The notes below the pieces were generated by a model. It was not told where the DNA came from, did no database searches, and saw only the letters and a program-made list of their open reading frames with translations. A stretch of 64,000 bases of DNA from an uncultured virus (IMG/VR IMGVR_UViG_3300024999_000092) (Duplodnaviria > Heunggongvirae > Uroviricota > Caudoviricetes), in IMG/VR virus record IMGVR_UViG_3300024999_000092; one strand, written 5' to 3'. The first letter of the stretch is position 1; the number at the start of each line of letters is the position of its first letter. The position numbers and the translations under genes are program-made. Positions 546-64,000 of the stretch are shown here, one piece after another.

Positions 546-1409
546 TTATAGTAACTGCATAACTGAATCATTCCACTTTATTTGATAACCGCTATGGCCG
601 TTTCTTTCATACGGAAATTCTTCTGCATACTTACGACCCTCATCGGATAGTCGCCATTGCTTTTCCGTTTTCTTGTCTCCTGTTTTCTTTGAAGTACGGG
701 TATACGTATCTTGGTACTGCAATCCAAGATTTAAAAGTTTCTTATTCATATCTACTGCCCTAATACCGCCCATTTTTTCACCTAATTCAGTAGCGGTATA
801 GGAACCTGTCTCATGTTCTGCTGCTGGGAGTGCCTTCTTATATTCATCCAACGACTCCCCTGTTTTGCGTTCAATTCTATTTATGGCTATAGAATTAGCT
901 ATACCGGGCTTAATTCCTGTCGCTTCGGATATTAATCTAGCTATGGTAAGTTCGTCCTCAATAATCGGTGCTATTTGCAAATAGTTATGTCTGCCGGTTG
1001 TTAATGGATATACGATTTCATCCCGCATATGAAAATATTCATCCAGGATTGCTTCGTACTTGTCCCATGCCAGATCATCGTCAAAAATTTTCAGAAGTTT
1101 GGCGTAACCTCTTTCTGATAAGAGATAGATGTTAACAGAATTAGCTATTGACTGTTTAGACATAATTCCACTATCTAAAAACAGGTCAACTAAATTGACC
1201 GAGTTTTTAATATCAATAACATCAACGCCATCAACGAATCTTTCCCTATTCATGTTAATTGCCTGATTGACTACCTTGAGTTCCTTGCCATGAATTTCAG
1301 CAATAGTCTTAGCTAACATTGCCTTCTTATCTTCACTAAAACCTCCTGAAATTTTAGGGACACTGACACCGCAAATAGTTGTCGTGCCGACCAATCTTAA
1401 AGCTTTCAT
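546..1409 (-). CDS. Phage antirepressor (ORF6N-like N-terminus, KilA-C/ANT-like C-terminus)
   Basis: [28 protein letters not shown] and [14 protein letters not shown] (ORF6N-like); [29 protein letters not shown] (KilA-C-like); start moved to ATG 1409 with RBS GGAGGTG. Confidence 0.8.
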
Positions 1410-1552
1410 CAGCGTTTTACACCTCCGCAATGTTGTTTAATAATTTCCTGCTGTTCTAGTTCAGAAAGTTTATAACTAACTAATATGCAACCATCCACAA
1501 TAATACAGTCTACCCACCCAGATAATATGCCACTAAGATACTCTACTTCCAT
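1409..1552 (-). CDS. 47-aa hypothetical protein translationally coupled to the antirepressor
   Basis: [19 protein letters not shown]...; RBS AAAGGAGG; TGATG stop/start overlap at 1407-1411. Confidence 0.55.
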
Positions 1553-2286: not shown

Positions 2287-2626
2287 GGTGAAAAAATTTC
2301 TTCTCGGTGCCGGCATTGTTTCTGGCGGTATTTTTTATTTCATTATTGGACTATTGGGACTGGCCATACATCTATGGACTATTGCAATTTCTTTCTATTA
2401 CGGAGGTATATTTTCTGCGATCATTGCCCTGTCGCTCCCGTTTATTGCGGAATTGTTCTGGTTTATTAATTCATGGATAATTACTGAAACTTTTTTCAAT
2501 ACATATACATCGTCTATTGCCGCTTACGCTGTAGTATCTATATCTACACTATTAATAATAGGGTTCCTTTCATCTAAGATGAATGACAACGCCGAATTGG
2601 AAAAAGAAGAACCGCCTTTAATTTAG
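2276..2626 (+). CDS. Polytopic membrane protein; moron / superinfection-exclusion candidate
   Basis: About three hydrophobic helices in 116 aa. Confidence 0.65.
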   Translation: MNYKVKKFLLGAGIVSGGIFYFIIGLLGLAIHLWTIAISFYYGGIFSAIIALSLPFIAELFWFINSWIITETFFNTYTSSIAAYAVVSISTLLIIGFLSSKMNDNAELEKEEPPLI

Positions 2627-5600: not shown

Positions 5601-8443
5601 TCTAATGCGTTTTTCTTAGGCAATTTTGTTTTCTCTGTTGGCAAAACTTCTTTGGCCTTAGAGAATAGGGTTTTTACCATCTGCATTTCCTGCGTCAATC
5701 TATTGGCAGGCATCATAGGTCTTGTATAGCTAACTATCTTTTGTGCCAGCATATTAGCCGGGTCAGTCTGTTTCTCGGTATTCGGTTTACCCTGCTTTGG
5801 TTTTGGTTTATTGCCGCCCAACTCAGGTGTTTCATTAACTACCTGGTCGATTGCTTCCTTATCAATGCCGTTAAATTCATCCTGCAATTTACCGCTTAAA
5901 TCATCGTGCTTATCTTTAGTCTGCTTCGGCAACTCGTTAAATGCTTTCTTTGTTTCTTTGTTTGCCTTAATCAGCACGCCTTCGGGAGATAGATTCATAA
6001 ATATTTTTACTGCCTGTGTCATTTGGCCGGCAGAAGTTAATTGCTTACCCATACTTTCAAGCAATTCTACAGACACATCATGCCTGCCCTGCTTCTGCAT
6101 AATATACGCTAACTGACCTGCCATTGCCGGCTTTAGTGCCGATACCTCATTTTCGTCAAAAACATACTTTAATGATTCTTCGATACCGTCAGTTTCAATA
6201 AACTTCCTCGCCGCTGCCTCGGTTTCGATATTCGTAATCGGTTTATACGCGCCCGGACCTTTACTGTAAATATCTACCAATAGACCTGCCTTGGTATCTA
6301 GATCGGTTACGGGCGCATCAATGGCGGTTCTTTGGAAACTTCTAACCCTCTCGTTAGTGCCTGGGAGAACGGATTGTTTTTCCGGCAAAGTTAGTTTGGC
6401 CGCCCCAATCGTTCCTTCATCATAGGTTTCAGCTTTATCCGGTTTTAGTCCAATGTCCTCGGACATAGTTTTAGTTTCCTGTTTACCGCCCTTAATTTCC
6501 TCCTGCAACCCCTCTAACTCCAACCAATCCTCGTCCGTCATATCCTTAGTCTCTTTAGCCTTAATATCCGTCCCGTATGCCCTGTTCTTAGCATCGACAT
6601 ACTCCTTAACCGGAGGATATTTATTACCGTAAATATCGGTATAACCTTCTGTTAAATGCTCGTCAATTAACAACTCAATCCGTTTAGCAAGGGCAACATT
6701 CTCTTGCCCTTGATCGTCAATAATGCGCTGCAATGCGTTTTCAATATCGTCATAACTGGCCTTCTGCTCGTCCAAAAGTTTAGCAATAGTGTCGGTAGTC
6801 ATGCGTTTATTGCCCCACGAGATATTCTCCGGTCCGGTATTCTCGCCATAAACTACTGTACCGCCACGCTCTGCTTTTAATGATGCAGAAAGATCGCCCA
6901 TGATATTTTTAGCCTGTTCTTGAATATGTGGTTTTAATTCAGGGTGATTGTATTGCATGGCCTTAACTTTTTTATCACCGACATTATTAGAATTACGCTT
7001 GTCTACCGGAATATCAAAGCGTTTTGCCTCGGCATCTAGTTTTGTCTTTACCTCGGCAAAGTTTTCTGCCGCATAAGTCCCGTCCTTTTCAACATTTTTA
7101 ACACCGTTCAAAACACTTCTACGGTAAGTATCGGCAGTACCAATCGGGTCAGGAAATTTCTCTTTGAGTTTGTTGTAGTTTGCTTCCGCTAAAAATTCTA
7201 ATTCCTGCGAATATGTTTTCTCGTTGTTGAGCATTTTCATTTGCTTATCTAATTCAAACAACATAGCATGGTCGGCATCGGGCAGGGTTATGTTTGCCGT
7301 TCCCTTACTACCACGATTAATCTTTATTTGAGTTTGCGGCAATGTTTCCTGTGCGACAATTGGTTCCTGTTTAACTGATACGGCAGGTATATCTTCGTCA
7401 GCAAAAGTCTCAGCACCGCTTCGGTTATCCAGTCGTGAAACATCGTTAATGACTGGTTGCTGTTTAATCTCAGGAGTAGTAATCTCCGGCACTTCCGGCA
7501 TTGCCTCGCCTACAACCTCCGGCATTTCTGCCTTAGTTTCCGGCACCTTAACAACCTTGCGGCCAATACTAGCAGTTTTACCGTCCACATCAACTTGAAT
7601 AATCATCTTATCGTTGGTTTTGACGGTTGCTTCTTTGCCGTTAGGTAGAATAACTTTATCACCCTGCTGTAGTCTGAGCTGTGGGTATTCTACACCCAGC
7701 TCAGGGTAGGCATCAATTATCCTGTTTATGCGGCCAAAATTTGAAGTATTCTGCACTATTGACCTTGCACCGTTAATGTCAGCAGGAATATCTTGTTTAA
7801 CTTCGGGGGAGGTGACTTCTTTTTCGGCTAAGGGTATTTCTGTAGACTTCTTCCTGCCTAAATAACTACCTGCGCCATGTATAGCCATGCCTAAAGCGGC
7901 ATTGACTACACCTGCCTCTGCCGCTTCTTGTGGCCTAAATTCACGGTCATTTAGCGTTGCTATCGTTGTTTCATATGGAATAGTTGCGCCGCCGACTTTT
8001 AATCCTGTTTTAACAACACCAGGTAAGTTCTCCAATCCTTTTACTTTTCCCGGCAAATTACCTAAGCCAAGTCCTCGCTCAATTGCCTTCTCGCCCAATT
8101 CAAACAGTCCCTTGCCTGCACTACCTACCTTCAAACTGCCACCAACAGGATCGCCAACAAAACCCATGACACCGCCCCATAGGTCAGCAGATAAGTCGCC
8201 TGCTTTACTGCCGGTACTAACCTTATTGGGATTGTCAACGGTAGTCATAATCTCGCCGCCTGTTTGGCCTGCGCGATCAATCCATTTGCCTGCGGTTTTG
8301 TACCAAGGTTCTTCCTTTGGCGCAGGTGTACCATTCTTAATAGTCATGTATTCCCTTAGTGCCTTTTTGCCATCATCATTCAAGTCGGTTAACTTAACCC
8401 TACCCGATCTTACCGCTTCATATAGTTTTTGCTGACTCACCAT
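2618..8443 (-). CDS. Large internal virion/ejection protein (1941 aa)
   Basis: Last and largest gene of a podovirus-type structural operon; helical, Gly-rich hydrophobic segments; internal ~190-aa duplication. Confidence 0.7.
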   Translation of the reverse strand: MVSQQKLYEAVRSGRVKLTDLNDDGKKALREYMTIKNGTPAPKEEPWYKTAGKWIDRAGQTGGEIMTTVDNPNKVSTGSKAGDLSADLWGGVMGFVGDPVGGSLKVGSAGKGLFELGEKAIERGLGLGNLPGKVKGLENLPGVVKTGLKVGGATIPYETTIATLNDREFRPQEAAEAGVVNAALGMAIHGAGSYLGRKKSTEIPLAEKEVTSPEVKQDIPADINGARSIVQNTSNFGRINRIIDAYPELGVEYPQLRLQQGDKVILPNGKEATVKTNDKMIIQVDVDGKTASIGRKVVKVPETKAEMPEVVGEAMPEVPEITTPEIKQQPVINDVSRLDNRSGAETFADEDIPAVSVKQEPIVAQETLPQTQIKINRGSKGTANITLPDADHAMLFELDKQMKMLNNEKTYSQELEFLAEANYNKLKEKFPDPIGTADTYRRSVLNGVKNVEKDGTYAAENFAEVKTKLDAEAKRFDIPVDKRNSNNVGDKKVKAMQYNHPELKPHIQEQAKNIMGDLSASLKAERGGTVVYGENTGPENISWGNKRMTTDTIAKLLDEQKASYDDIENALQRIIDDQGQENVALAKRIELLIDEHLTEGYTDIYGNKYPPVKEYVDAKNRAYGTDIKAKETKDMTDEDWLELEGLQEEIKGGKQETKTMSEDIGLKPDKAETYDEGTIGAAKLTLPEKQSVLPGTNERVRSFQRTAIDAPVTDLDTKAGLLVDIYSKGPGAYKPITNIETEAAARKFIETDGIEESLKYVFDENEVSALKPAMAGQLAYIMQKQGRHDVSVELLESMGKQLTSAGQMTQAVKIFMNLSPEGVLIKANKETKKAFNELPKQTKDKHDDLSGKLQDEFNGIDKEAIDQVVNETPELGGNKPKPKQGKPNTEKQTDPANMLAQKIVSYTRPMMPANRLTQEMQMVKTLFSKAKEVLPTEKTKLPKKNALDEVVTALQQSDNYRKTWEDAKNVIIEENGELPQVMKDVELYIEHYLNVPYSERSLSRLLSEAIKSKGFNLEQSAFGISSLTFKSVQEESRNFIKSIINDSGLTGRNAEVLAMELGVKLDEAIMKKRDITNKKRGEKTSELAEKIIKMATNTPKDSKSNLIKEMFDTLMQKAKESMPKVEGAKPTKDGMLPIYNSLNNRKMFNQVWSEAKKDIVKRLEAKGLSVEGVNLDQMFAELLYHPYTKGQLSREVTKGIKQYGIDVNNIVRQHFTVAEKTGQTLAEKLTTRGMLRKDEAALLAQDIQARFAEIAETKKAQILKNMFREKSLTKEQRTIDQKIIELSNLGALSKEQYRRSVAEKMGLPVLTEDIANRLVSLSEQAQMAEGRQGEILRGQISKILAEQQPVSFWRKVSSVQTFAQLLNPKTAIRNLVGNAGFNALENVSDVVGAGIDKGVSMVTGKRSKVLPSIATQVKGGIKGVKEGIEDAMLGIDTLGYDGKFDLPQSRTFKKGIVGRLETALNIELKATDRAFYESARTESLRNQMSAAKVEKPTDEMIEQAHLDGLYRTFQDDNALSAFFVGLKRLMNDPAHVLGFAKGRQAREFGAGDFIVKYPKTPANLLMRGIEYSPAGVIKVITEATRSLVGKEFNQKAFVESFSRALVGSTALFGTGIILHKLGIITGRPEKDRELAEIQRESGFGEYRINVSALKRVLFGGNTKPQNGDKIISYDWMLPNSLPLAVGADVDKNAGKATGIVGTIMKSLSTGINAFADQPVVQGIETLFSGYGEIDQGILRVLQGVPSSFVPTLLNQVKQLMDNQKRETYDPNWAKQTTNKTINRVPGLSSTLPQKYGTLGQPLEAYQDGSNSLGNVFLNPAFVNEYNPTKQAQTVIDISNETGETKQIPRVVDKSFKVDGQDFELSGEEYAKYQKLVGEKTNVGIARVSSRLTPEAQTKRIQGIMDKANQEAKIQILRDRGLRVAKRGNGIKIFGEIENRLN

Positions 8444-26029: not shown

Positions 26030-28762
26030 TCACATTCCGTAAAATCCAGGCAATCCTTCTTCTTCCTCGTCGTCATCATCGTCTGCCCATTGCTCCATAG
26101 ACATGGGATTAATCCTTATGCCCTTGTCCTGCCCCGGTAGAAATGGTATACTGCCAGTGTCTTTAAGTGGCATCGTCATATGTAAAAATGCAAGTATAGC
26201 AGACATTAAGATAACATCGTCGTGCTGACCACCTCTTGCCGCCTCTTTGGTATTTGGGTGCCTTATAAAGTTATTTGCTTCATGGACAAATCTCTTAAAG
26301 TAGCACTCGAAAACACCTTCGCGTACAGTCTTTTTAATAGCATCAATAATAAGTGGTCTAGTTTTTGTATTTGTATGCCAACCCAATTTTTGAGTAGTCG
26401 TATCTGACCTTTTATCATAAACCTTTGACCTATAAATATCATAGTAAACCTTTTTGAAATGACTAATAGTTGTACCGCCATGATTATTTAACTCTATCGC
26501 CACAAGCGGTTTACCGTAATAAACTGCAATTTTATGTATATAGTCAGACAGTATATCCGGTTCTACCTTGCCATGATACACAGCATCAAGTCTTAATCTA
26601 TGCCTATTAAGAACTCCTACAGCGTCATAGTCACCATGCTCCAACCCTTCCGCAACGTCAGCAGATATAAGGTATTCAATCCCTGCTTCGGGATGAAACC
26701 ATATTTCATAATCACCCTTTACATCAGGTTCCCAATAGACTTGATTTTTGAATTGGTTAGTCCAAACAAGATTACCACGTTCACCGTCGTAACATTTAGT
26801 TTGCATCTCATGTATTCTTTTTACATTAAAAACACATTTACCGGGCATAATAAAACGCCCATATTTCCGCGCTTCTAACTCCGCTTCATCCATAGACGCT
26901 TCAAGACGTTTCTTTTCCTTTGTAGATAGATAGGGGTTGTCATTCCATTCTACCATTATTAGAAATATTTCATCGTCACGTTTCTCAATCGGTTTTGAGT
27001 CGTTCTCATAAATATCAGAATAAACCCATGTCATACCTTGAAGTGGGGTCATTGTACCGAACAAGTCACCCTCAGTATCCATTAAGCGCATTTGTACTTC
27101 TGTATATATATCTTTGGGAGATTCTTCGTCCAACCAACAATTTGAAACCATACATGCTCCAACAAAAAACCTATGATCTTTTTCGATTGATAAGTCATAT
27201 GTTTTTTTGTTGCCTAATGGTATTAGTCCTTTTATCCTACCATATTTTTCTTTTACTCTGTTGTTTTGCTTTTTCCAGTACATACTTTTTTCTGAATCTA
27301 AGCATTTTGCAATTCTACTTCCGCAACCGTCTTTAGATGACTTACTTTCTATGCGTCTATTTGCTTCATCGACAACAATATCAATTGCCTTTTGCTTACC
27401 TTCTATACCTACACGTTCTGCAAATTTAATAACATGGTCAGCAGAACTAATATAAACCCACCATTGGTTGCGCCATGCTCCAGGTTTTTGACTTTTCTTT
27501 TTAGTAAAACTTGAACGTATACCTATTCTGCGCAACAACAAGCAAACATCTTCTGCTAATCTACGCGAAGTCGAGGCGTACCCTATTGTATGTCCTGATG
27601 CCCAACCGTCTCCAGCAAATAAAAAGCGTAAAAAAAGAGCAATATGCTCGTTGTCTGAACGGAAAACCCAATCAGGTACAAACTTTTCATGCGCAAGTCC
27701 AGGAGGTACCGCATCCCAAAACTCAGGCCAATTATTAATATGCCAGTCTGGAACATGATTACAACTCTTAAACTCCTGCTTTCTTATATATGCACCGGCA
27801 GGCAAATATTCTTTGGCAGCGGCAACAATTTCTTCACTGCCAATAGTTATTTTCTTTTCTGACGTAGTTCCTTCACTAAGAACAAGTCCTAACCACGGAT
27901 AAAAACTATCAGGCATATTTTCAACTACATCAGGTTGATAGTCTAAGTCAGACAAATATACTTTATCCGCTTCATTGACTTTCTTCTTTAATTTTTGTGA
28001 AACATAAACTTCGTGATCTTCTGTTAGTTGTATCCACGGAGATTTGCCAGTAACAACATCAAAAACTGGTTTTTCTCCCATATCGTGTTTGGCAATAACT
28101 TTTCTGGTAACTGTCTTTCCGCAACCATTTTTAGTTATAACGCTATCCCCAGGCATGACATTCTGTATTGGTTTATAGGTACCGTCAGACATTAATACTC
28201 GCTGATCTTCAGCAATGCACCAGTGTTGCGATGAACCTTGAAACTTTTCCCGTCCTTGGTCATAGGACTTGAAACCTATAATCCCACCACCAACAAGGCG
28301 TATAGTGTCGATGATACCTGTACTACGGTAAGTTATTTTTTTAATTTCTCTTAGCGGCAGAAGTCCCGGTATTCCAGTCTCAGGATCACCCAATATTTTC
28401 TTTTGAGTAACGTCACGCTGCACCTCAAAAGATACTGAACATATCCAACCCCTTGTAGGTTTACCACCGAAACGAGTTATCAGAGGTTCGTATTTCTCCC
28501 TTAAATCCTCTGGCCAATCTTTAAGGTATGGGCGTATTCTCTCGCCTAATGCAAGGAATACCGCCCTAATTGCACCACTTTCAGTTTTTCCTGTGCGATT
28601 CCCTCCAAGTATCCAGCTATTCCTTTTATTGGATAGAAGAAACTTTTCCTGCTTATCATACGGACGAATAAAGCGAATATGTTCTTCCTTCTTCATCCGT
28701 TCAATTTCACTAAGGATCTTTTGCAGTTCTTTCTTTTCTGCTTTTGTTAACTCTTTTGCCAT
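26030..28762 (-). CDS. terL: Terminase large subunit with intein
   Basis: Walker A GGNRTGKT, FKSYDQGREKFQG, Walker B WLDEE, TMTP coupling motif, nuclease ADVAEG...HDDVI. Confidence 0.92.
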   Translation of the reverse strand: MAKELTKAEKKELQKILSEIERMKKEEHIRFIRPYDKQEKFLLSNKRNSWILGGNRTGKTESGAIRAVFLALGERIRPYLKDWPEDLREKYEPLITRFGGKPTRGWICSVSFEVQRDVTQKKILGDPETGIPGLLPLREIKKITYRSTGIIDTIRLVGGGIIGFKSYDQGREKFQGSSQHWCIAEDQRVLMSDGTYKPIQNVMPGDSVITKNGCGKTVTRKVIAKHDMGEKPVFDVVTGKSPWIQLTEDHEVYVSQKLKKKVNEADKVYLSDLDYQPDVVENMPDSFYPWLGLVLSEGTTSEKKITIGSEEIVAAAKEYLPAGAYIRKQEFKSCNHVPDWHINNWPEFWDAVPPGLAHEKFVPDWVFRSDNEHIALFLRFLFAGDGWASGHTIGYASTSRRLAEDVCLLLRRIGIRSSFTKKKSQKPGAWRNQWWVYISSADHVIKFAERVGIEGKQKAIDIVVDEANRRIESKSSKDGCGSRIAKCLDSEKSMYWKKQNNRVKEKYGRIKGLIPLGNKKTYDLSIEKDHRFFVGACMVSNCWLDEESPKDIYTEVQMRLMDTEGDLFGTMTPLQGMTWVYSDIYENDSKPIEKRDDEIFLIMVEWNDNPYLSTKEKKRLEASMDEAELEARKYGRFIMPGKCVFNVKRIHEMQTKCYDGERGNLVWTNQFKNQVYWEPDVKGDYEIWFHPEAGIEYLISADVAEGLEHGDYDAVGVLNRHRLRLDAVYHGKVEPDILSDYIHKIAVYYGKPLVAIELNNHGGTTISHFKKVYYDIYRSKVYDKRSDTTTQKLGWHTNTKTRPLIIDAIKKTVREGVFECYFKRFVHEANNFIRHPNTKEAARGGQHDDVILMSAILAFLHMTMPLKDTGSIPFLPGQDKGIRINPMSMEQWADDDDDEEEEGLPGFYGM
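27140..28219 (-). mobile_element. 360-aa intein with LAGLIDADG homing endonuclease
   Basis: Block A CIAEDQRVLMSDG, block B LTEDHEV, motifs WLGLVLSEG and FLRFLFAGDG, block F/G TYDLSIEKDHRFFVGACMVSN followed by Cys+1. Confidence 0.9.
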
Positions 28763-43636: not shown

Positions 43637-43963
43637 CTAACTATCCTGCATTTTTAAATGCTCGGCAACTGTCGCTAAGAAGTTACTGACGGTAGGCGGT
43701 TTAGTTGCGTTCATGCGAAACATTTCGACATATTCAACAGTACCATTTTCCTGAGTTTCCTTAATCGCGTGCCTAATACTTCTCTCAACTCTCTTGCCGG
43801 TTGTGCTGAATTTATCCGCTACCTTGTCGTAAGTATCACACCAACGATAAGCGGAGTTTGGAGTATCTAGGGTTATCTGAATTGCTTCTTTTGCGTATAG
43901 ATAGCCGGACATTTCCGGCGGTACTCCTAAGTCTAGGAGTGTTTTTGTGGTTTTGTTTTTCAT
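43637..43963 (-). CDS. Spo0A C-terminal DNA-binding domain homologue (no receiver domain)
   Basis: LLDLGVPPEMSGYLYAKEAI, YDKVADKFSTTGKRVERSIRHAI, KPPTVSNFLATVAEHL match the Spo0A_C pattern. Confidence 0.88.
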   Translation of the reverse strand: MKNKTTKTLLDLGVPPEMSGYLYAKEAIQITLDTPNSAYRWCDTYDKVADKFSTTGKRVERSIRHAIKETQENGTVEYVEMFRMNATKPPTVSNFLATVAEHLKMQDS

Positions 43964-51786: not shown

Positions 51787-52806
51787 TTAATTAGCATCCT
51801 GAGCGATTAACCACTCATTATAACCTGCTTGACGTTCTTCTACGATGCCTCTCAGTCCTTCAAGGTTGTTATCATTAATAGACTTGATTATCATTTCAAC
51901 CGCCTTGTCGTTTGCTTTTTCTAAGGAGTTTGTCTTACCCTTAGATGCTGTCCAAACCAAGACTGTAACCTCGTCATTAGTCAATCCCTTATTTAATCCG
52001 GCAGCATATACAGGATGAATATTCTCTAATTGTTCCTCTGGGTAATTATTACCCTGTGTTGCTAATGCCATTTCCTCGGCAATTTGCTGTTCTTTTGCCC
52101 TGTTTAGCATATCAATAAAGTCCTGCCCTGCCGCTTGAATCTGTAAAACATGCTCAGAGGGAGGTAATGCTTTGCGTTGATGCCGATTAATAAAGTCTGC
52201 CATAGTCCCTTCAATATCTACCTGCAAGACAAAGACGGTTTTCTTAAACTGCTTACCATCGGTTATAATTGTTCCCTCATGCGGTTCGATTTTTAACTTA
52301 AGCGGAATAAAGGCTATTTTGCCGCCGGTCATGCCACGAATCATATCAAGACTACTGTTAATGTTAACTATCGAATTCCAACCGCCCGTAGTGGTCTGAT
52401 AAACCCTCATACTGCTTACCTTCGGGACAATGTAACTAAGTGTACCTTTCGGCTGGCAACCCTTACACCAAGGATCGTCAAGGTCACATGCTCGCTCAAC
52501 CATTTCCCCATCAATCATTGCGGTTCCGGTTTCTCCGTCGCCTTTACAATGAAGTCCAACCTTACCGTACTTCTTCATGTATTGAGGGAAAATTTGCTCT
52601 AAATCGTTTACAGGAAAAATAATGTCTAATTCCTTTGGGTCTTGTCCATATATTGCGGCAACTTCCTCCGGTACTTTGAAATGGTCAAGTGCAACCGGAT
52701 ATTCAACTACTTTGCCGTTACGATTTTCTTTTTGCACCTTCTCACCTATCTTAATCTTGCCTTGTCTCGGTAGACGGCGGCGTTCTGATATTCCCTTAAT
52801 TGCCAT
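51787..52806 (-). CDS. Gp3-like recombination/annealing protein (phiC31 gp3 RDF-like family)
   Basis: LPRQGKIKIGEK...YPVALDHF...CKGDGE...GWNSIVNI. Confidence 0.65.
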   Translation of the reverse strand: MAIKGISERRRLPRQGKIKIGEKVQKENRNGKVVEYPVALDHFKVPEEVAAIYGQDPKELDIIFPVNDLEQIFPQYMKKYGKVGLHCKGDGETGTAMIDGEMVERACDLDDPWCKGCQPKGTLSYIVPKVSSMRVYQTTTGGWNSIVNINSSLDMIRGMTGGKIAFIPLKLKIEPHEGTIITDGKQFKKTVFVLQVDIEGTMADFINRHQRKALPPSEHVLQIQAAGQDFIDMLNRAKEQQIAEEMALATQGNNYPEEQLENIHPVYAAGLNKGLTNDEVTVLVWTASKGKTNSLEKANDKAVEMIIKSINDNNLEGLRGIVEERQAGYNEWLIAQDAN

Positions 52807-54007: not shown

Positions 54008-55306
54008 TTAACTTGTTTGTGGTTCTGGTTTAAACCAATCACACGTTGTTCCTGTGCACTCAACCTTTCCTGGACACTTACTGTTTTTTAAGAGAAGACA
54101 AGTGCAAATTTCATCACGATCCAAGCAGTGCAGGCAACATCTTGGTTCGATAATCAAGTTGCAACCAATAACATCAAACCATATGCCTTTTTTAAATTTT
54201 AAGCATAGTTTATTTATGGCACTTAATGGATTTTTAGCTATTACAGATTCCCTATTCATCCTGTCTGGAAATAAATACACATTTACTATATATAATTTTT
54301 TCAATATTAATCTCACCTCAAAATGGTATTACGTCCGGCTCACTCTCCACCGCCTCAAAACAATCCAAATTAGGACACATCAGGCGGTAGTCTTGCGTTT
54401 CCCTCTCGACCAAAATCCCCGCAACCACTTCCATGTCGGTGCCGGGGACAGCAACTTCCACCATTTCACTTCCGCAGCGTTCACACATGGACATTTGAAC
54501 GACTCCCTTGCATATTCATCCGGCACACTCGCTTGCTCCAAGCAGTACGCCGACACTCTTTCAAGTGTTTCTGCGACTAATACTGCTTGTCCGTTGCGGA
54601 TACTCTGCGCCCATGATGCGGAGTGTTTTGCTAATTGTGCGTAGTCGTTTGTGTTCATGCTTTTTTATTGGTGATTAGGGTTAATTCTTCTTGCAGAAAA
54701 CACCTTTCAAGTCCATCCCAAGTCGCTACCATATTGTCTAATTTAACGTCACATAACTGCTGAAAATGTCCGTCATAAGTACATATAACAGTACCTTTGA
54801 TGTTTACTATATCCATATCAGGTTCATTAACAATAACCCGATCCCACTCTTTAAACTTCATCCTACTTGTCCTCCTTCGCCTCCTCAAAAGCATAGCAAG
54901 TTGTAGATTGTGCTGCTTTTATAGCATTAAAATTTACTCCGCTATCAGTACATTTCCAATAACCTTTTAATTGCAGACAAAACTTGCAATCATTACACGT
55001 TTTTTCAATTGGTATAGATACGCCCACTTTAATTCCCACCACCAAATTTTAACTTAAATTTACGGCACGACTACGTGCAGGTGACAGTAAAAACATTAAA
55101 CAGTTATAGTTAATCCAGTTATCGTCGGCAAAGTTATCTCCAAGTAATCTTTCCCCGCCTTGCGGCCAATCAGGATTAAAATACTTAATATGACTATCGC
55201 AAGCACCTATAATTAAAATAGGCTTATCAGTAAAACTTCTATCTCCTGTTTGTGCCGCACACTTAGTTCTTACGGCTAATTTGCCTATAAGTTGTTCTGC
55301 TCTCAC
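54008..55306 (-). other. Small hypothetical ORFs (54008-54316, 54380-54658, 54655-54894, 54863-55045, 55049-55306)
   Basis: Packed ORFs downstream of the cro-like gene. Confidence 0.55.
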
Positions 55307-55369
55307 GGTATCTACCTCCCTAAAAACTTTTTAAAAAATTTTCATAATCATTGCCGCATATACATATCA

Positions 55370-55603
55370 TTAATTAAGTAAATCGGAACTGGATTCAGTT
55401 TCTATCATCAGATCAATAACATCACAATTCAAAGCGGCAGCAATACGCTGTAACGTATTGAGGCCAGGGTTAAGATTTTCTCCAACTTCTAAAAGACTAA
55501 TTTTTTGTTGGGTAATGCCGGTTGCTTCGCTGAGTTCTCTTTGTAATAATCCCTGTTGTTTACGTCTCTTAGCAATATTTAACCCAACACGTTTCAAATC
55601 CAA
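55370..55603 (-). CDS. Cro-like XRE-family HTH regulator
   Basis: RRKQQGLLQRELSEATGITQQKISLLEVG...NPGLNTLQRIAAAL. Confidence 0.85.
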   Translation of the reverse strand: MDLKRVGLNIAKRRKQQGLLQRELSEATGITQQKISLLEVGENLNPGLNTLQRIAAALNCDVIDLMIETESSSDLLN

Positions 55604-55629
55604 ACTGTTTGTCCTCCTTTCAGGGTAAT

Positions 55630-55767
55630 AATACTGGAAACAGTATTTCTATGCAAAAAATTAAAACCGTTTTTCTATTACTATTATACACCTTTTACGG
55701 TGTATGTCAACTGTATTAAGTAAATTTTTCTGTTAAATTGTCGTTGCCAAAAAATAATCTATATACT
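55630..55767. promoter_or_regulatory. Divergent genetic-switch promoters and operator palindromes
   Basis: AATACTG-GAAA-CAGTATT 55630-47; ATACACC-N6-GGTGTAT 55686-705 inside leftward TTGACA-16-TATAAT (55710-55683); rightward TATACT 55762-67. Confidence 0.7.
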
Positions 55768-55813
55768 GAATTAAGTAAGGGCAATATAATCAATACATAA
55801 GGGAGGGTGTCTG

Positions 55814-56218
55814 ATGGAGATTAAAGACAAACTGTATAATTTGAGGAATAACCGAGGTTTAAGCATGGATGATCTATCTCTAAAAACTATCACAAGCGAG
55901 TGTCCGAAGGCCGTATCAACCAACACCATTGCGGAAATTGAAAGCGGAAAAAGACAAAGTCCCGGAATAAAAGTGATCGAAAGACTTACTACCGCACTTA
56001 ATGTATCACCTATGTACTTCTTTAGTGAAAACGCTCGTACTGTTTTTGACATTTCCGAGGTTAACGAGGTATTGACCGATGAAATTAAGCAAATGCTACT
56101 TGATAAGGAAACCTTGCCATACCTGTTACTGGCTAAAAAGGCGTACACTGACCAAATACCGCCTGATATTGTCGAAGAATTACTGAAAACCATAACAAAG
56201 GTAAGAAATATGCAATAA
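55814..56218 (+). CDS. CI-like XRE repressor (no S24 peptidase domain)
   Basis: LRNNRGLSMDDLS...TIAEIESGKRQSPGIKVIERLTTALNVS; divergent from the cro-like gene. Confidence 0.8.
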   Translation: MEIKDKLYNLRNNRGLSMDDLSLKTITSECPKAVSTNTIAEIESGKRQSPGIKVIERLTTALNVSPMYFFSENARTVFDISEVNEVLTDEIKQMLLDKETLPYLLLAKKAYTDQIPPDIVEELLKTITKVRNMQ

Positions 56219-56247
56219 CTTTGTCGAAATTACGGGAAAATATTACC

Positions 56248-56302
56248 TTGAAAATTACGGACACTCAGCGTATTATTATGTGTAGCATAAAACAAGTGTT
56301 CG
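56248..56302 (+). promoter_or_regulatory. Promoter with downstream LexA (Cheo)-like box
   Basis: TTGAAA-17-TATTAT (56248-56276); AAAAC-AAGT-GTTCG 56289-56302 versus CGAAC-N4-GTTCG. Confidence 0.55.
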
Positions 56303-56312
56303 CAGAAGGGGG

Positions 56313-56510
56313 ATGGGCATTATAGATATAGCAGACTTTGGCGGTTTTTTCCATTGTGTAGTTGACGGTAAAAACATAACTATCGACCAAAACATTACCC
56401 AAAAAGGAATTAAACAGGTTAATAAGATATTAACGTATAGTCAGGCGAAGCAGGATGTGTCCCTGGTTGATGCCAGGGAAGAATATGCCTGCGCCGGGTC
56501 AGCGAGATAA
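56313..56510 (+). CDS. Small protein, possible SOS-induced antirepressor
   Basis: 65 aa; own promoter; terminator AAACCCCT...AGGGGTTT after the stop. Confidence 0.55.
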   Translation: MGIIDIADFGGFFHCVVDGKNITIDQNITQKGIKQVNKILTYSQAKQDVSLVDAREEYACAGSAR

Positions 56511-56589
56511 ACAAAAACCCCTTCCATGTGGAGGGGTTTAATAAATTACATTGCATTATTTACCGGGTAATGCTAAAATTATTGTCAAT

Positions 56590-56669
56590 TAAACACGAAA
56601 GACACCCATCCGGCCAAGGTTGAAGGTGTCTTTATCCTAAAGCGGAGGCGTTCTCTGCTCGCTTTGCTA
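56590..56669 (-). ncRNA. Candidate counter-transcribed antisense RNA (~80 nt)
   Basis: Minus-strand TTGACA(56704-699)-17-TAAAAT(56681-676); ends at hairpin AAAGACACC/GGTGTCTTT; lies inside a leader driven by TTGCAT-17-TAAAAT (56551-56579). Confidence 0.6.
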
Positions 56670-56744
56670 TTACTTATTTTAAGCAAGGTTAGCCAAAATG
56701 TCAATACTCTCCGCTATGGAAATTTTGGAGTGGAGGGAAAATTG

Positions 56745-57566
56745 ATGGGACAGGCACTTGCGAAGTTAGACGTTAGGGAAAATTCCACTAGAAAATATCT
56801 AGAATTAATCGTTAGAAATAAGGAAAATACTATTAGAAAAAGCAATCATAATAATAATGATGATTATTATATAGATATTATTAAGAGAAAGAGTAATGCA
56901 CTAAGAGAATATTTAGGTAAAACAAAAGAAAAGGTGAATGAACCAATGGAAAATTCTAATGGAAAAACGAAAAGTAAATATATTGGCGTTGATGAAGCTG
57001 CTGAGTACACCAACAAAACAACTAAGACTATTAGGAATTGGATTAAAGCAGGTATGCCGCACACTACAGTAAACGGAAAACACTTTATCAGCATAGAGAC
57101 ACTAGAAGTTTGGAAGGTAAGAAAGTACGAGAAAATAAAATTTGTACCGGAAAGTGCTAATGGAAAAGATAGCGAACCTGTGGATAACTCAGTTAGTGCG
57201 GAAATTACATATACTGAAATTTATCAACCTAAAAATAATTCTCCGCAAAATCATCAACCCGTACAAATTATTGACGTTGGCCGCAACTATATGGCAGAGG
57301 TTGAAGAAAAAATAAGTTCGGCCTTATCTGAGCAGAGAGAATTTTTTACTGCTGCCTTGGCCAGCATTGAAAAGAAACAGGAACTAGAACGGCAGGAGAA
57401 TAAGATCGTCATTGACACCATGACAAACGAAAATGCCCAACTCGTCAAAAAAGTTGAGCATCTTGTTAGTCGTGTTCAGCGTACCGAAGAATTTATCGAG
57501 TGTCAGGAGAAGAAGTTGCCTTGGTGGAATTTTGGCGGTAGAATGTTATCTCTTAAAAGACTTTGA
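56745..57566 (+). CDS. HTH (excisionase/MerR-like) plus coiled-coil protein with C-terminal amphipathic tail; RacA/TubY/pSK1-Par-like architecture
   Basis: YIGVDEAAEYTNKTTKTIRNWIKAG; coiled coil; KKLPWWNFGG tail; start ATG 56745 with RBS GGAGGG. Confidence 0.6.
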   Translation: MGQALAKLDVRENSTRKYLELIVRNKENTIRKSNHNNNDDYYIDIIKRKSNALREYLGKTKEKVNEPMENSNGKTKSKYIGVDEAAEYTNKTTKTIRNWIKAGMPHTTVNGKHFISIETLEVWKVRKYEKIKFVPESANGKDSEPVDNSVSAEITYTEIYQPKNNSPQNHQPVQIIDVGRNYMAEVEEKISSALSEQREFFTAALASIEKKQELERQENKIVIDTMTNENAQLVKKVEHLVSRVQRTEEFIECQEKKLPWWNFGGRMLSLKRL

Positions 57567-57809
57567 CAGCATTTCTACTGGATACAGAAGTATAATTAAT
57601 ATGCCGCATATCATCCCCGAAAATAATATAAAAATAGATATCGCAAGGCCGACTAATGGGAAATTTATAAATATTTTAATCGCTTTTTGGTATTTTTGTG
57701 GACGTTTTTCTATAAATTCATCAATAAGATCATGTTTCATAAACGCAACCCCTAATGACCATAACGCCATAAATATAAATATAATTACAACTATCTCAAA
57801 TGATATCAA
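57546..57809 (-). CDS. Small membrane protein
   Basis: Two hydrophobic segments. Confidence 0.55.
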   Translation of the reverse strand: MISFEIVVIIFIFMALWSLGVAFMKHDLIDEFIEKRPQKYQKAIKIFINFPLVGLAISIFILFSGMICGILIILLYPVEMLSKSFKR

Positions 57810-58028
57810 TATTTTACCCCCTACAATTTACTTATCAACCGGTTAAGAAGTTTCCGTGGTGAAAGTTATTTAAACATAGACGATAACCTTAAAAATAACC
57901 TGCCTTTAAAACTCCTTCTATCAACCCAGTAACTTTTATATCCATCACCGTTCAGTGCGCTACACCTATGGCAAGGTTCACTATGTATTGCATTGCTAAA
58001 CCTAGTGCAATGATGGCATAAATCTTTA

Positions 58029-59706
58029 TTACTCAACGATTAATCTCCCCTCCTCACAACAAACAAGTCTTACGATATTAGGATGATTACCTTTGTGAAA
58101 AACCTGCTTGCCGTATTTATTACAAACGTGAATAGGATATTTTTCGCCTTTTCTTTTCGCAATGCTTTGCTGCTGCTCAGTAAGGGAAAGATACTCGCAG
58201 TTGCCGCAAAATTTATTGTTCAACATTGATTTAAGGTTACTCATAGTTTGCCGCCCATCCATTTCTCGAGTAGATAATTAAAAAGTTCGTATGCGCCAAT
58301 TGCAAGAAATCCCGTTATGATGTGGCTTATTATTATATTACTCAACGGATAACCTCCTTCAGCGTGGTAGGAAATGCGGGATAAACTTGCTCACATTCAC
58401 CATTACTTCGCCAGCCTGTGTTATTGTCACATAGATATGGTTTGTTCTCAAACGCCCACCATCCGGTATTGTCATAAGCAATATACTTCGCCCACTCCGG
58501 TATCGAGTAGAATTTAATTTGATTATTCACTATTACCACCCGCCTTCCCAAGTGACTTTTTAATCTTAGCACACAACTTCGCCCTATCGTCAGGATCTAG
58601 ACTATCAATAACATCCTGCGGACATTCAAGGAGAAACTTAACCGCCTGCAAGAGTTTGATTTGTTTATCAAGAGACTTAGTAGTACTTTCACCCTCAAAA
58701 ACTCTTTTCTCCCTGCTATCGTGCTTGTATGCACACTCAGGGCATACGATATTATTGTCCAACGGTACAAAATACACTATGTCGCAGTCGCTAAACGGTT
58801 TGCCGCATACCTGACAGTTACGGATTGATGTTGTTTTCATTTTATACCTCCTTAGTAATTGGCTTAATTTTACTCATAACCTTCTTATGCAATTTCTTTA
58901 ATATGGAATCTTGTTGCGAATCAGTGAGTAAATGAAATATGAGCATCAAATAGGCATTGTGTAATTTTTCTATCAATTCCCGTTCTTTGCCTAAGGTAAA
59001 TCCTTGCTTATTCAACTGATCTTCTATCGGTTCACATAAAGCACCGTAACCTATTCCTACTTCTTTTTTAGTCAACTTACTTCCTCCCCACATTTATCAC
59101 ATTTCCCCTCTGCCCTCTCCGCAGCGGTCAACTTTCTACCGCACCCAAGGCAGTATTCCGGTTCTGTTTTGGTGTAGTCGAAAAGCGTTAGTTAATATTC
59201 TTCTTTTTCCCACAGTCTCCACATAACCATTTATCCTTATTTAACATCCATCCCCTTTTTATACATTCTTTTATGCCTTCTTTGGAAGTTTTACTATCTA
59301 TATACTCCCATTTAGGACATGCCGAACAGAAAACTGTTAATTGAACATGAAAATACTTTAGATTAGTAGGCATATTTATTCCTCCCCTCCGTCAATAGAT
59401 ACGCACCTGTTTTTGTGTAGTCGAAGGGCATTATTCTACTACCTTAAATTTGCCACGAATCCATTGCTTATCTGCCCTTGGTTCGCCGTTCTTCTTTAAC
59501 TTATGCCAATGCCAATCCATAAAATCTCCAATGGACGGAAGGGCAAGTATACCACGCTCACCCTTTGCATTTTCAACTAACTGTCCTACCTTGAAACCTG
59601 TTTTTAACTCTAAAAGTTGGCATCTTAGGTTAAGTATATCTTGCTTAGTGTTTTTCATAACTTCTTCGAGTTCAGTTATTTTTAGCTTTATGTCTTGTAT
59701 ATTCAT
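58029..59706 (-). other. Run of small accessory ORFs, several Cys-rich (58029-58262, 58342-58572, 58523-58840, 58842-59093, 59188-59373, 59431-59706)
   Basis: Packed ORFs with GGAGG RBSs. Confidence 0.55.
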
Positions 59707-62380: not shown

Positions 62381-62602
62381 CTACCTCCCAATCATCCTAT
62401 TATGATTCGCAACAACTCTCTTATCCCGTATCTTCTCCCAGGCATCGCCGTACAGCGACTCCATCCGCTTATTGAATATCTTTTCCTTGCGCACCTGCTT
62501 CTTATAATACTTCTCATGGTCAGGCGTATTGTCCGGCGGGCCCAAATGATAGAGAGTACCCAAAATCATTCCAATGCCCCGACCTGCTCCCGATAAACTC
62601 AT
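62381..62602 (-). CDS. Hypothetical protein
   Basis: ATGA-coupled to the upstream gene. Confidence 0.5.
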   Translation of the reverse strand: MSLSGAGRGIGMILGTLYHLGPPDNTPDHEKYYKKQVRKEKIFNKRMESLYGDAWEKIRDKRVVANHNRMIGR

Positions 62603-63240
62603 TTAATCACGTCCTTTACTTCGCTCATTAGACAAACATAAAACACAACTTTACTGCCTTTAATCAACTTCTCGATCCTTGCCTTATCCTTAAGATTATC
62701 AACAACTACGACAACTCTAGCAAACTTACCCGGCATCGGCCAATCCTCGGCATCCCATTTACGACTAAGCGCATATTGCTCGTATTGCTGAATCTTAACC
62801 GACATATCGGAATGATTAATCGCCCTCTGATACTCAACGAAATACGGCCTGTTTTCGACCACTACAAACGCATCAGCTATGCCAATACCATAATCAAAAT
62901 CACTCTTAAATACGGGGTTAATATGCCGCAAATTAATGAATATCTGATTAATACCTAACCTATGTTCAACGTGCTTTGGCTGCTTACCCATCCAATAAAT
63001 ATAATCGTTACAGGACATACACCTGCCTCGATAAATTAACTTTGCATCAAAGAGTTTCTTTAACTCCGTTCTGCATTTGTGCTGACCATAATTGGAATCA
63101 TCAAACAATAACTGATTAACTTGCCGACGAGAAAGAACACCAAAATCTTTAAGAAAATTAATAATATCAAAACGTCTTTGAGTAGAACGAATCGGAAAAC
63201 TAACAAAAGCCAAATTTTCAGCAGACATAAAGGCTAACAC
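62599..63240 (-). CDS. Replication-relaxation (Replic_Relax)-like protein
   Basis: Winged HTH (FGVLSRRQVNQLLF), HRLGIN, IADAF...FVEYQR...KIQQY PD-(D/E)xK-like motif; next to FtsK. Confidence 0.75.
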   Translation of the reverse strand: MLAFMSAENLAFVSFPIRSTQRRFDIINFLKDFGVLSRRQVNQLLFDDSNYGQHKCRTELKKLFDAKLIYRGRCMSCNDYIYWMGKQPKHVEHRLGINQIFINLRHINPVFKSDFDYGIGIADAFVVVENRPYFVEYQRAINHSDMSVKIQQYEQYALSRKWDAEDWPMPGKFARVVVVVDNLKDKARIEKLIKGSKVVFYVCLMSEVKDVIK

Positions 63241-63296
63241 CTCACATTTAAAACAAGTGGTTTATAATACGCGGATTGATAAAAGTATCGGTATGT

Positions 63297-63506
63297 CTAC
63301 CAACTTAAATTATTCTGTCGCTCCTTCAAAGATTTGATATTTTCAGCACACCATTCACTCGTAAAATTTAATGTATAGTTCATTAACTCAACCCTTCTAT
63401 TAAGAGTATTTACTATTTCCTTAATGTGATCTCTTTCGATAATCATAGCGACAGTAACTTCTCTAAGTACTTCAACAGACTCAAGCATAAAATCTAAATT
63501 ATCCAT
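63297..63506 (-). CDS. Small coiled-coil hypothetical protein
   Basis: ORF between the FtsK-like and Replic_Relax genes. Confidence 0.5.
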   Translation of the reverse strand: MDNLDFMLESVEVLREVTVAMIIERDHIKEIVNTLNRRVELMNYTLNFTSEWCAENIKSLKERQNNLSW

Positions 63507-63509
63507 ACG

Positions 63510-64000
63510 TCACCAACTTAAAACCTCCTCGTCTTCCTCAGTGGCTAAAACGGTAACAACATTGTCGGACGGATATACCTTTTTAATCATCTTCTTAATC
63601 ATGCCAGGGTGCAAATCCATAACCTGCACCTTCCGCATCCTCTCTTTGGCCTGAAATATACACCTGCCGGGACATTCGAGATATGCCGCTTGGTTGCGTT
63701 CTTCGCCCAATACCATTCTACTATACCGGCGAGAACTCACCTTAAAGGCTATCGTTGCCGGTATTAACGATCTAACCTCGCCGGATACAACCTTACATGA
63801 AGGGTGCTGCGTGCAAATAATCGTGTGGATCCCAGCAAACCGACCTTGTTGCACCAGCGTTAACGCTAACTTTTTTGCATCTTCGTCAAGACTCATCCAT
63901 TCATCAATAACGATAACGGCATGAGACATTTTATCCTTGCCTACCTTGTTGTAATCGGCAATAGAGGACACGTTGGCTTTGCTAATCAACTTAGCTCGGT
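63510..64000 (-). CDS. FtsK/SpoIIIE-family ATPase, C-terminal part (truncated by window)
   Basis: IVIDEW, QQGRFAGIHTIICTQHP, IAFKV, AAYLECPGRCIF; frame stays open to the window edge. Confidence 0.85.
   Translation of the reverse strand, partial: RAKLISKANVSSIADYNKVGKDKMSHAVIVIDEWMSLDEDAKKLALTLVQQGRFAGIHTIICTQHPSCKVVSGEVRSLIPATIAFKVSSRRYSRMVLGEERNQAAYLECPGRCIFQAKERMRKVQVMDLHPGMIKKMIKKVYPSDNVVTVLATEEDEEVLSW

Follow-up and report, generated by a model that had tools for sequence, protein, structure and literature searches.

Can a tailed phage carry, within its lysogeny module, a gene whose translation is set by an antisense RNA in the manner of a plasmid replication gene, and what would the product of such a gene do? 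The question is raised by a cassette at 56.55-57.57 kb of a 64-kb stretch of tailed-phage DNA (the window; uncultured virus, IMG/VR record IMGVR_UViG_3300024999_000092), which comprises a leader of ~160 nucleotides (nt) and the gene for a protein of 273 amino acids (aa), P0001. A sequence-only reading of this DNA had proposed that the leader follows the logic by which RNAI controls rep of plasmid pSK41, and that the protein, laid out like RacA, TubY and pSK1 Par, belongs to a copy-number-sensing module for segregation or maintenance. We find in the leader a near-consensus counter-promoter and two mutually exclusive predicted folds, kept in relatives, and at the start of the gene direct repeats whose type tracks that of the encoded helix-turn-helix domain (HTH). 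Every element listed by the sequence-only reading is present where it had been placed and exceeds chance expectation, and its interpretation finds support in part. Copy-number sensing and a role in segregation or maintenance are inferences from these features, and the prophage may have a plasmid state.

Relatives of the cassette were gathered at the protein and the DNA level. The 273-aa protein has 17 relatives, all metagenomic, in a collection of 5.8 billion proteins, and a profile search of 1.84 billion representatives gave 11 at an E-value of 1e-30; about 13 of the 150 matches listed cover most of the profile, and the remaining ones match the HTH alone. Leaders were fished with a 17-nt piece of the sense promoter and passed through a BLAST filter, which confirmed the leader in 32 of 112 fished loci, none of them from the genome collection. 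The 17-mer matches that lack further leader similarity (32 of 32 genome contigs, 40 of 59 metagenome contigs) are as expected of chance, and no integrated copy was seen in the genome collection by this 17-mer search. INPHARED gave neither a DNA nor a protein match, PLSDB gave no protein match, and the nearest virus record (G001) does not match the cassette region. The 32 loci reduce to 14 distinct sequences of leader plus 5' coding sequence (CDS), 13 of them usable, with leaders 73-90% identical; one further variant, L006, is without the 17-mer.

From 5' to 3' the leader consists of the sense promoter, hairpin H1, hairpin H2, a third hairpin that spans the antisense -10 element, the antisense -35 element, an anti-Shine-Dalgarno (anti-SD) segment, a loop, and the SD with the start codon (Table 1). 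The sense promoter, which the sequence-only reading had placed at 56551-79, is present there; its -35 element matches the consensus at 3 of 6 positions only, which is why a consensus scan did not list it. Its invariance in the fished set is by construction, as the 17-mer bait lies within it. L006 carries at this position a different sequence with the same promoter architecture (TTGAAA, 17 nt, TGtTAGAAT). The palindrome TTACCGGGTAA in the spacer is absent from L006 and unlike the repeats of the cI/cro intergenic region, and it may be the operator of another regulator. We dropped cI as the regulator acting at this palindrome because it has no counterpart in the cI/cro region.

The near-consensus antisense promoter at 56704-56676 also proved to be as the sequence-only reading had it. 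A scan of the whole window found four sites that match at least 11 of 12 consensus positions, all on the minus strand, where simulation gives a mean of 2.41 per 64 kb, equivalent to 0.006 per 160 nt. All 13 aligned variants and L006, 14 variants in total, have the same hexamers and a spacer of 17 nt. We consider this promoter likely to be real. The same evidence bears on the possibility that the cassette makes no functional antisense RNA, the leftward match and the pairings being by-products of a leader that dampens translation and H1 serving only as a terminator. In favour of that possibility, the fold of the window's own leader is locked with or without antisense RNA, and the relatives are close in their leaders, so that the invariance of the promoter partly reflects recent common descent. 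Against it stand the rarity of such sites in 160 nt, the constancy of hexamers and spacer length while 10 spacer positions beside the -10 element vary in at least four forms, and the observation that the other three sites of equal quality in the window all head operons, those of the cro-like gene (55710), the anti-repressor (1629) and an Arc-like gene (61287). We regard the absence of a functional antisense RNA as improbable.

The whole leader folds with a z-score of -3.20, and none of 200 shuffles folds as well. In the proposed off state, CTCTCCGCT (56707-15) pairs with AGTGGAGGG (56729-37), which contains the SD of the ribosome-binding site (RBS). This pairing, of nine pairs with two G-U among them, is present as claimed; the SD hairpin belongs to the minimum-energy fold (z -3.52; 1 of 200 shuffles folds equally well) and occurs in 13 of 13 variants, in two sequence forms. 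Within it, the probability that GGAGG is unpaired is 0.001 in the window and 0.001-0.25 across variants. In 12 of 13 variants the minimum-energy fold pairs the SD; that of L042, the exception, holds the on pairing. For that on state, the complementarity of AGCGGAG (56641-47; the H2 5' arm) with CTCCGCT (56709-15) is again as claimed, and folding with the SD forced open joins the H2 arm to the anti-SD by 7-10 pairs in the best structure of 11 of 13 variants.

Opening the SD costs 1.3-14.8 kcal/mol over the 13 variants, with a median of 5.5, and 1.3-5.5 kcal/mol in 7 of them. Keeping the stretch that the predicted antisense RNA covers free of pairs raises the median cost from 5.5 to 13.0 kcal/mol; an antisense RNA would therefore remove the sole good alternative to the locked fold. 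Two mutually exclusive leader folds, kept in relatives, with the antisense-covered segment acting as an anti-anti-SD, thus hold up in silico. That the switch works as described in the cell is a claim towards which these predictions lean us slightly.

From the geometry of the counter-promoter, the predicted antisense RNA would start ~7 nt past the -10 element, near 56669, span 56641-47 and run into the hairpin at 56598-56633. The claim that an antisense RNA covers 56641-47 follows from this geometry, with the transcript itself a prediction. A fold with two hairpins is the minimum-energy structure of the antisense RNA in four of the five variants folded, and not in that of the window. H1 shows compensatory changes at 2 of 10 stem pairs (pair 17:46 is GC in 6 variants, AU in 6 and GU in 1), and L006 provides a further version of the stem. 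Because it is flanked by an A-run and a T-run, H1 looks terminator-like both ways; it is likely the terminator of the antisense RNA and possibly an attenuator of the sense RNA as well. A search of 55000-58500 with Rfam cmscan at E-values up to 5 returned one unrelated weak match (rnk_pseudo, 21.2 bits against a gathering threshold of 55), and none of the covariance models of the plasmid countertranscript families ctRNA_pT181, ctRNA_pND324, ctRNA_pGA1 and RNAI matched in this region.

The protein starts with MGQA or VGQA in 33 of 34 unique aligned family members. An AlphaFold2 (AF2) model, with a mean predicted local distance difference test (pLDDT) of 66, comprises a helical hairpin (residues 2-61), a winged HTH (79-125), a disordered stretch (127-178), a long helix (178-257) and a tail helix (259-271). 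The HTH is matched weakly by Pfam HTH_17 (E 3.7e-4; 21.1 bits against a cut-off of 27) and by PHROG_66, 'excisionase and transcriptional regulator' (E 1.7e-7), and the best sequence matches in the PDB are Pukovnik Xis (E 4.7e-5) and lambda Nu1. Among PDB fold matches RacA (5i44) ranks first (E 9.8e-3, root mean square deviation 1.3, 50 columns), the matches also including TerS, TraN, Xis, RdfS and BldC, and the DNA-binding domain of pSK1 Par (8csh) is at rank 31. Every one of these aligns to the HTH part alone, and all are weak because the domain is small. The viral fold library yields small HTH proteins only, mostly named regulators or excisionases, and ESM Atlas features, all scoring below 0.9 (HTH_17 and MerR clusters; RacA cluster 0.84), are leads only. 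By these comparisons the fold class of the HTH is MerR/Xis-type, and at the level of sequence the protein family, as well as the combination of known principles in the cassette, is new.

The PHROG_66 and Pukovnik Xis matches point to an excisionase or recombination directionality factor. However, the similarity is limited to the ~45-residue HTH of a 273-aa protein that also has a long helix and a tail, and there is no integrase nearby or anywhere in the window; an excisionase function is very improbable.

C-terminal to the HTH, the long helix is presumed to be an oligomerisation coiled coil, with a heptad pattern that is significant for residues 223-257 only (P 0.027). In all 9 variants compared, the tail carries a charge of +1 to +5 and abounds in Trp and Phe. 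An alignment of 18 sequences has W260 and W261 throughout; outside that alignment, L031 has Leu-Trp. The protein may bind DNA through the HTH and perhaps membrane through the tail. The proposed layout of HTH, coiled coil and amphipathic Trp-Trp tail stands as an order of architecture, and less so in its parts, with the heptad confined to 223-257 and the amphipathic moment seen in 4 of 9 variants.

GGAAAA repeats had been noted through 56718-57166, and 7 of the 21 plus-strand copies in the 64 kb do lie there. This is the densest GGAAAA cluster in the window, at a density reached by 0.02% of 449-nt windows, and it holds 4 of the 9 plus-strand copies of GGAAAAT. The informative signal is narrower than GGAAAA(T): it consists of direct repeats in the first ~100 nt of the CDS that are specific to the class of HTH. 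Counted over CDS positions +16..+115 in 14 variants, RGAAA(A/T) occurs in 5, 4, 1, 5, 5, 5, 5 and 3 copies in the eight variants with the two related HTH classes A and B, and in 0-1 copies in the six others. Class C has four copies of TACGA at +34, +56, +78 and +100, with an exact period of 22 nt and phases 0, 1, 2 and 0 (none elsewhere); class D has three copies of GGAAGT in each of two variants, with a 23-nt period in L066 (0-1 elsewhere); and class E has 4, 2 and 2 copies of TTCA(G/T)A (0-1 elsewhere). The background outside the gene is 0.01-0.16 repeats per 100 nt. Because one motif occupies different codon phases, what is kept is the nucleic-acid sequence rather than a repeated peptide. 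Of 12 variants, three (L002, L066 and L007) have a significant autocorrelation, and eight have their best lag at 11 or 21-24 nt. Directly behind the repeats, at +105..+135, 12 of 12 variants are 83-90% A+T.

The gene has a mosaic structure. At its 5' end, the leader and codons 1-7 are conserved; next come the variable codons 8-32, which hold the direct repeats, then a conserved loop rich in Asn, Asp and Tyr followed by KSNAL..YL, then the variable HTH, and finally linker, helix and tail in numerous combinations. The 34 unique proteins comprise 14 N-terminal types, 6 HTH types and 11 types of helix, and the N-terminal and HTH types occur in only 14 combinations. Each of the five non-singleton N-terminal types goes with one HTH type, and each of the five goes with more than one helix type. 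Comparison of the variants shows that the type of repeat array tracks the type of HTH, and the repeats are probably the protein's own binding sites, as judged from their sequence. The start region of the gene is duplicated in L031 (MGQALRKGLCVGHALAK...), which looks like a recombination scar placed precisely where the conserved leader gives way to the variable N-terminal segment.

This pattern can also be read as that of a replication initiator with an origin in its own gene, in which the repeats would be iterons, the A+T stretch an unwinding element and the antisense RNA the copy-number control of a non-integrated prophage replicon. The origin of lambda lies inside gene O and varies with the DNA-binding domain of O. 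The repeat periods of 22-23 nt in classes C and D, and the pattern of HTH-specific direct repeats beside a stretch that is rich in A+T in 12 of 12 variants, agree with such an origin, and the gene is located on the lysogeny side, away from the module of DnaD-like, DnaC-like and helicase genes. Initiator genes, pSK41 rep among them, are described as controlled by antisense RNA that induces sequestration of the RBS, RepA_N initiators as binding Rep boxes inside rep, and the natural chimera pPR9 is reported to have swapped its DNA-binding domain together with the origin while keeping control region and C-terminal domain (PMC5703833), the same mosaic pattern as found here. However, Pfam, PHROG and PDB searches by sequence and fold revealed no similarity to an initiator family and no recognisable initiator domain. 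The C-terminal half is a highly mosaic helix plus a short tail, with no conserved globular domain for recruitment of a helicase or primase. The A+T stretch also encodes the conserved N/D/Y loop, so that the constraint on it may act on the protein. An initiator is quite unlikely on this evidence.

Table 1. Positions of the elements of the cassette and of neighbouring features in the window.
Feature	Position	Strand	Details
Sense promoter	56551..56579	+	TTGCAT 56551-56, 17 nt, TAAAAT 56574-79, TG 56571-72 (extended -10)
Perfect palindrome TTACCGGGTAA in sense-promoter spacer	56560..56570		sole perfect match in the window
Predicted antisense RNA, ~75-80 nt, two stem-loops	56590..56669	-	ends inferred from promoter and H1 geometry
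Hairpin H1	56598..56633		A-run and T-run flanks; predicted folds
Hairpin H2	56641..56659	+	5' arm AGCGGAG (56641-47) = anti-anti-SD
Antisense promoter	56676..56704	-	TTGACA 56704-56699, 17 nt, TAAAAT 56681-56676; 11/12 match
SD-locking hairpin	56700..56746	+	SD (56729-37) and first start-codon bases held by anti-SD (56707-15)
CDS of the 273-aa protein (P0001)	56745..57566	+	
RGAAA(A/T) direct-repeat array	56777..56841	+	CDS +33, +46, +70, +78, +91; codon phases 2, 0, 0, 2, 0
A+T stretch encoding NNNDDY loop	56850..56880		nearly pure A+T
MerR/Xis-type winged HTH, residues 79-125	56979..57119	+	Pfam, profile, AF2 and fold searches
Long helix, residues 178-257, presumed oligomerisation coiled coil	57276..57515	+	AF2 pLDDT 74-91
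Cationic, aromatic C-terminal tail (PWW...)	57516..57563	+	alignment, AF2
Terminator-like G+C-rich hairpin	56515..56540	both directions	A-run before, T-run after; kept in all relatives
Open reading frame, 65 aa, between cI-like gene and terminator	56313-56510	+	matches no family; kept in L001 and L002
cI-like HTH gene	55814-56218	+	first of three island genes
cro-like gene	55603-55370	-	faces the plus-strand island; perfect consensus promoter
DnaD-like, DnaC-like and helicase module	45.8-50.5 kb		
Terminase, portal, capsid and tail genes	2.6-31 kb		

Nearly all genes of the window are on the minus strand, and the cassette gene belongs to a short plus-strand island of three genes at 55.8-57.6 kb. 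A cI/cro-type switch, identified by Pfam, PHROG and a promoter scan, lies directly upstream, in agreement with the claim that the gene adjoins the cI switch. The hairpin at the end of the cI-like operon closes it, to judge from its sequence, and in L001, L002 and L006 the gene is likewise preceded by a cI-like gene, a small open reading frame (ORF) and the same terminator. Converging on the cassette gene, an ORF for an 87-aa hydrophobic, probably membrane protein (57546-57809, minus strand) with promoter-like sites of its own overlaps its 3' end by 21 nt; L001 has no counterpart at that position.

The position next to the switch suggests another reading, that of an ordinary transcription factor which serves the lysis-lysogeny circuit and regulates its own gene; the repeats would be its operator, a roadblock within that gene, and the antisense RNA part of the immunity circuit, with no role in DNA inheritance. 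P22 sar, P1 c4 and lambda OOP are the comparison for antisense RNAs in immunity circuits. Also consistent with this reading are the small MerR/Xis-type viral fold matches, which are mostly named regulators or excisionases, the presence in the window of an anti-repressor and an Arc-like gene that make up a second immunity-like region, and the prediction that the window's leader is almost always closed. However, a repressor does not need a long helix and an invariant Trp-Trp cationic tail, and a layout of HTH, coiled coil and C-terminal module is described for DNA-segregation proteins (PMC11500499, PMC7762940). In addition, the cI-like protein is highly alike among relatives (as compared by eye) whereas the specificity module of the cassette is diversified, which would be unexpected within one immunity circuit. 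We therefore judge a plain regulator unlikely.

The second immunity-like region is at 546-1846, where an anti-repressor gene (ORF6N, PHROG_1726; 1430..546, minus strand), with its 11/12 promoter at 1629, is faced by an Arc-like ribbon-helix-helix gene (1691-1846, plus strand), a layout that we take to recall P22 immI. The window also encodes two DNA methyltransferases, one protein with a Spo0A_C domain and two YopX proteins. The Spo0A_C gene (43637-43963, minus strand) encodes 108 aa that correspond to the C-terminal DNA-binding domain of Spo0A alone (PF08769, E 3e-21), which suggests a spore-forming host and interference of the phage with sporulation control. On the strength of this gene, a spore former of the Bacillota is the probable host.

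No integrase was found among the genes of the 64-kb window. A tyrosine recombinase is present in one of five related viral records, sited among structural genes, and a serine recombinase in none of the five nor in the window; the five records are estimated by CheckV to be 21-84% complete, the three longest 83-84%. The sole recombinase in these records is a 281-aa Xer-like protein, encoded at 1186-2031 of L113 (virus record G002) and inserted among the structural genes. At the right end of the window (62599-63989, minus strand) a Replic_Relax-type protein and an FtsK/SpoIIIE-like protein, the latter running off the window, form a pair as found in plasmids or integrative and conjugative elements, upstream of many small leftward genes that converge on the cassette. 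In the structural region, a 1941-aa ORF of the tail genes (2618-8443, minus strand) matches no PHROG or Pfam family, and the large terminase (26030-28762, minus strand; 910 aa) has no family match before residue 374 and two matching stretches from there on, so that its N-terminal part is long and unexplained or the protein holds an insertion.

We hypothesize that the cassette is a self-contained unit at the end of the lysogeny-side genes of a temperate tailed phage. Its own promoter would produce an mRNA with the ~160-nt leader, in which by default the anti-SD locks the RBS and the start codon until the 5' arm of H2 captures the anti-SD. From the strong counter-promoter within the leader, an antisense RNA of ~75-80 nt, ending at H1, would pair over this releasing segment. 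More copies of the gene would then give more antisense RNA and less translation per mRNA, as in the pSK41 RNAI/rep scheme. Assembled as oligomers on the repeat array, the protein would secure inheritance of the phage genome by tethering or positioning it, perhaps at the membrane, and binding inside the 5' end of its own gene could also provide autoregulation. The architecture of the protein inclines us to a tether or segregation adaptor for DNA that also regulates its own gene; we place the tether first, an initiator with an intragenic origin second and a plain autoregulated regulator third. As a whole we hold this explanation tentatively, its chance falling somewhat short of even, and the tethering or segregation role, which is argued by analogy, is slightly more doubtful still.

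Several observations weigh against this explanation. The antisense transcript and its repression of the gene are predictions from sequence; seven sequencing runs contain part of this DNA, and none is recorded as RNA. The antisense RNA of the window itself gives no clean pair of hairpins (z -0.80). For the window's leader the cost of opening the SD shifts little, from 11.2 to 12.8 kcal/mol, so that the switch may be almost always off there; with 1.3-5.5 kcal/mol in 7 of 13 variants against 11.2, it is far better balanced in the relatives. Two of the 13 variants, L001 and L040, do not form the proposed on helix. Because a run of 3-5 U follows H1 on the sense RNA as well, H1 may stop most sense transcripts. 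On the side of the protein, no Pfam family beyond the weak HTH was found at E up to 1, the heptad pattern over the whole long helix has a P of 0.94, and the amphipathic moment of the tail exceeds that of shuffles in only 4 of 9 variants. The repeat motifs were chosen after inspection of the same sequences in which they were counted, and the periodicity of the window's own repeats is not significant (P 0.27). A distance of only ~50 codons separates the N-terminal from the HTH segment, and linkage alone could hold them together. An integrase may lie outside the sequence covered, the related records being incomplete, and a protein of the Gp3-like recombination directionality factor family is encoded at 51787-52806 on the minus strand (PF18897, E 2e-40). 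Finally, antisense RNA control is not described for the Par, RocS, TubY or RacA genes in the literature consulted on them.

If the tether explanation is true, the cassette would bring together two principles in a phage lysogeny module and an unrelated protein family. Antisense RNA control of dosage is a hallmark of plasmid replication genes, and the single-protein DNA tethers RocS, pSK1 Par, RacA and TubY form a small and poorly understood class. Their combination would offer a compact, easily cloned system for the study of single-protein DNA segregation, and the four repeat types paired with four HTH types are a natural specificity set suited to a cross-binding matrix. An inheritance function would allow a non-integrating prophage to be passed on at division and perhaps captured in the forespore of its spore-forming host, and could help to explain how temperate phages that lack an integrase nearby maintain themselves in spore formers. 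We speculate, with rather little weight on it, that the cassette represents a new phage-borne class of single-protein inheritance system, with a RacA/RocS-like tether between DNA and membrane, an intragenic repeat centromere, repeats and HTH swapped together for specificity like incompatibility determinants, and dosage set by a countertranscript, or else that the array and the A+T stretch are the intragenic origin of a new kind of initiator. If the protein is only an autoregulated regulator, the cassette still has a well-conserved, testable two-state leader with a countertranscript in a phage.

Among known systems, RacA, which anchors the chromosome of Bacillus subtilis during sporulation, gives the best structural match to the HTH (5i44) and shares with P0001 a winged HTH plus a presumed coiled coil, as well as, probably, a spore-forming host. 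The sites of RacA are G+C-rich inverted repeats, unlike the repeats here, which are direct and A+T-rich. The two proteins also differ in sequence (E only 0.34) and at the C-terminus, which binds DivIVA in RacA and is a Trp-rich tail here. RacA is described as a winged HTH with a coiled coil and a disordered C-terminus that binds repeated centromere-like sites and tethers DNA (PMC11500499). For RocS of Streptococcus pneumoniae and for Par, both of the single-protein partition type, the same source gives a MerR-type winged HTH, a coiled coil and a MinD-like amphipathic helix, with a membrane-binding tail described for RocS and suggested for Par, and pSK1 Par is said to bind sequence repeats on its plasmid (PMC11500499). 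The model of P0001 resembles RocS and Par in its MerR-type winged HTH, its helical, presumed oligomerisation region and its short cationic C-terminal helix. It differs from them in that DUF536 (PF04394), a domain with three conserved glutamines, was not found at E up to 1, the HTH at 79-125 is behind a 60-residue helical hairpin and not N-terminal, a ~50-residue disordered linker and a Trp-rich tail are present, and the repeats lie inside the gene. TubY, of the type III tubZRC partition systems, is described with an N-terminal MerR-like HTH, a coiled coil and a lysine-rich tail that is a membrane-binding amphipathic helix only when oligomeric (PMC7762940); P0001 is like it by architecture, in the MerR-like HTH, helix and basic tail, and unlike it in that no sequence similarity was found and the window ORFs include no TubZ/tubulin-like or TubR gene. 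RocS, pSK1 Par, TubY and RacA are all presented as acting in DNA segregation (PMC11500499, PMC7762940). Thus the layout of RacA, TubY and pSK1 Par that had been ascribed to the protein is recovered as architecture, with RacA as the top fold match, and not as family membership, given the lack of DUF536 and of tubRZ and the internal position of the HTH.

Small winged HTH proteins of the Xis/BldC type belong to the same HTH fold class, but have 50-80 residues without helix or tail, and roles in recombination or transcription. BldC binds direct repeats head to tail, and the Xis-DNA entry among the PDB matches is titled a cooperative micronucleoprotein filament; by analogy, both cases fit an array of direct repeats.

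For the leader the comparison is with pSK41, a staphylococcal RepA_N plasmid, in which RNAI is described as an RNA of ~83 nt with two stem-loops that pairs ~100 nt upstream of the rep start and is proposed to induce a stem-loop sequestering the RBS (PMC5703833). In contrast to rep, the gene controlled here has no RepA_N or other Rep domain (Pfam at E up to 1, PHROGs), the two systems share no sequence or Rfam similarity, and the setting is a phage lysogeny module and not a plasmid replicon. Of the pSK41 logic that the sequence-only reading had recognised, the counter-promoter and the two exclusive folds are retained, and the energy shift is weak in the window's variant. The resemblance extends over four features: a counter-promoter inside the leader of the controlled gene, at the level of sequence; a predicted countertranscript of ~80 nt, complementary to the leader far upstream of the start, with two stem-loops as the minimum-energy structure in four of five variants folded though not in the window's; an antisense-covered segment that, in silico, frees the SD in 11 of 13 variants and raises the median opening cost from 5.5 to 13.0 kcal/mol when blocked; and, as in pSK41 rep, putative binding sites of the encoded protein inside its own gene.

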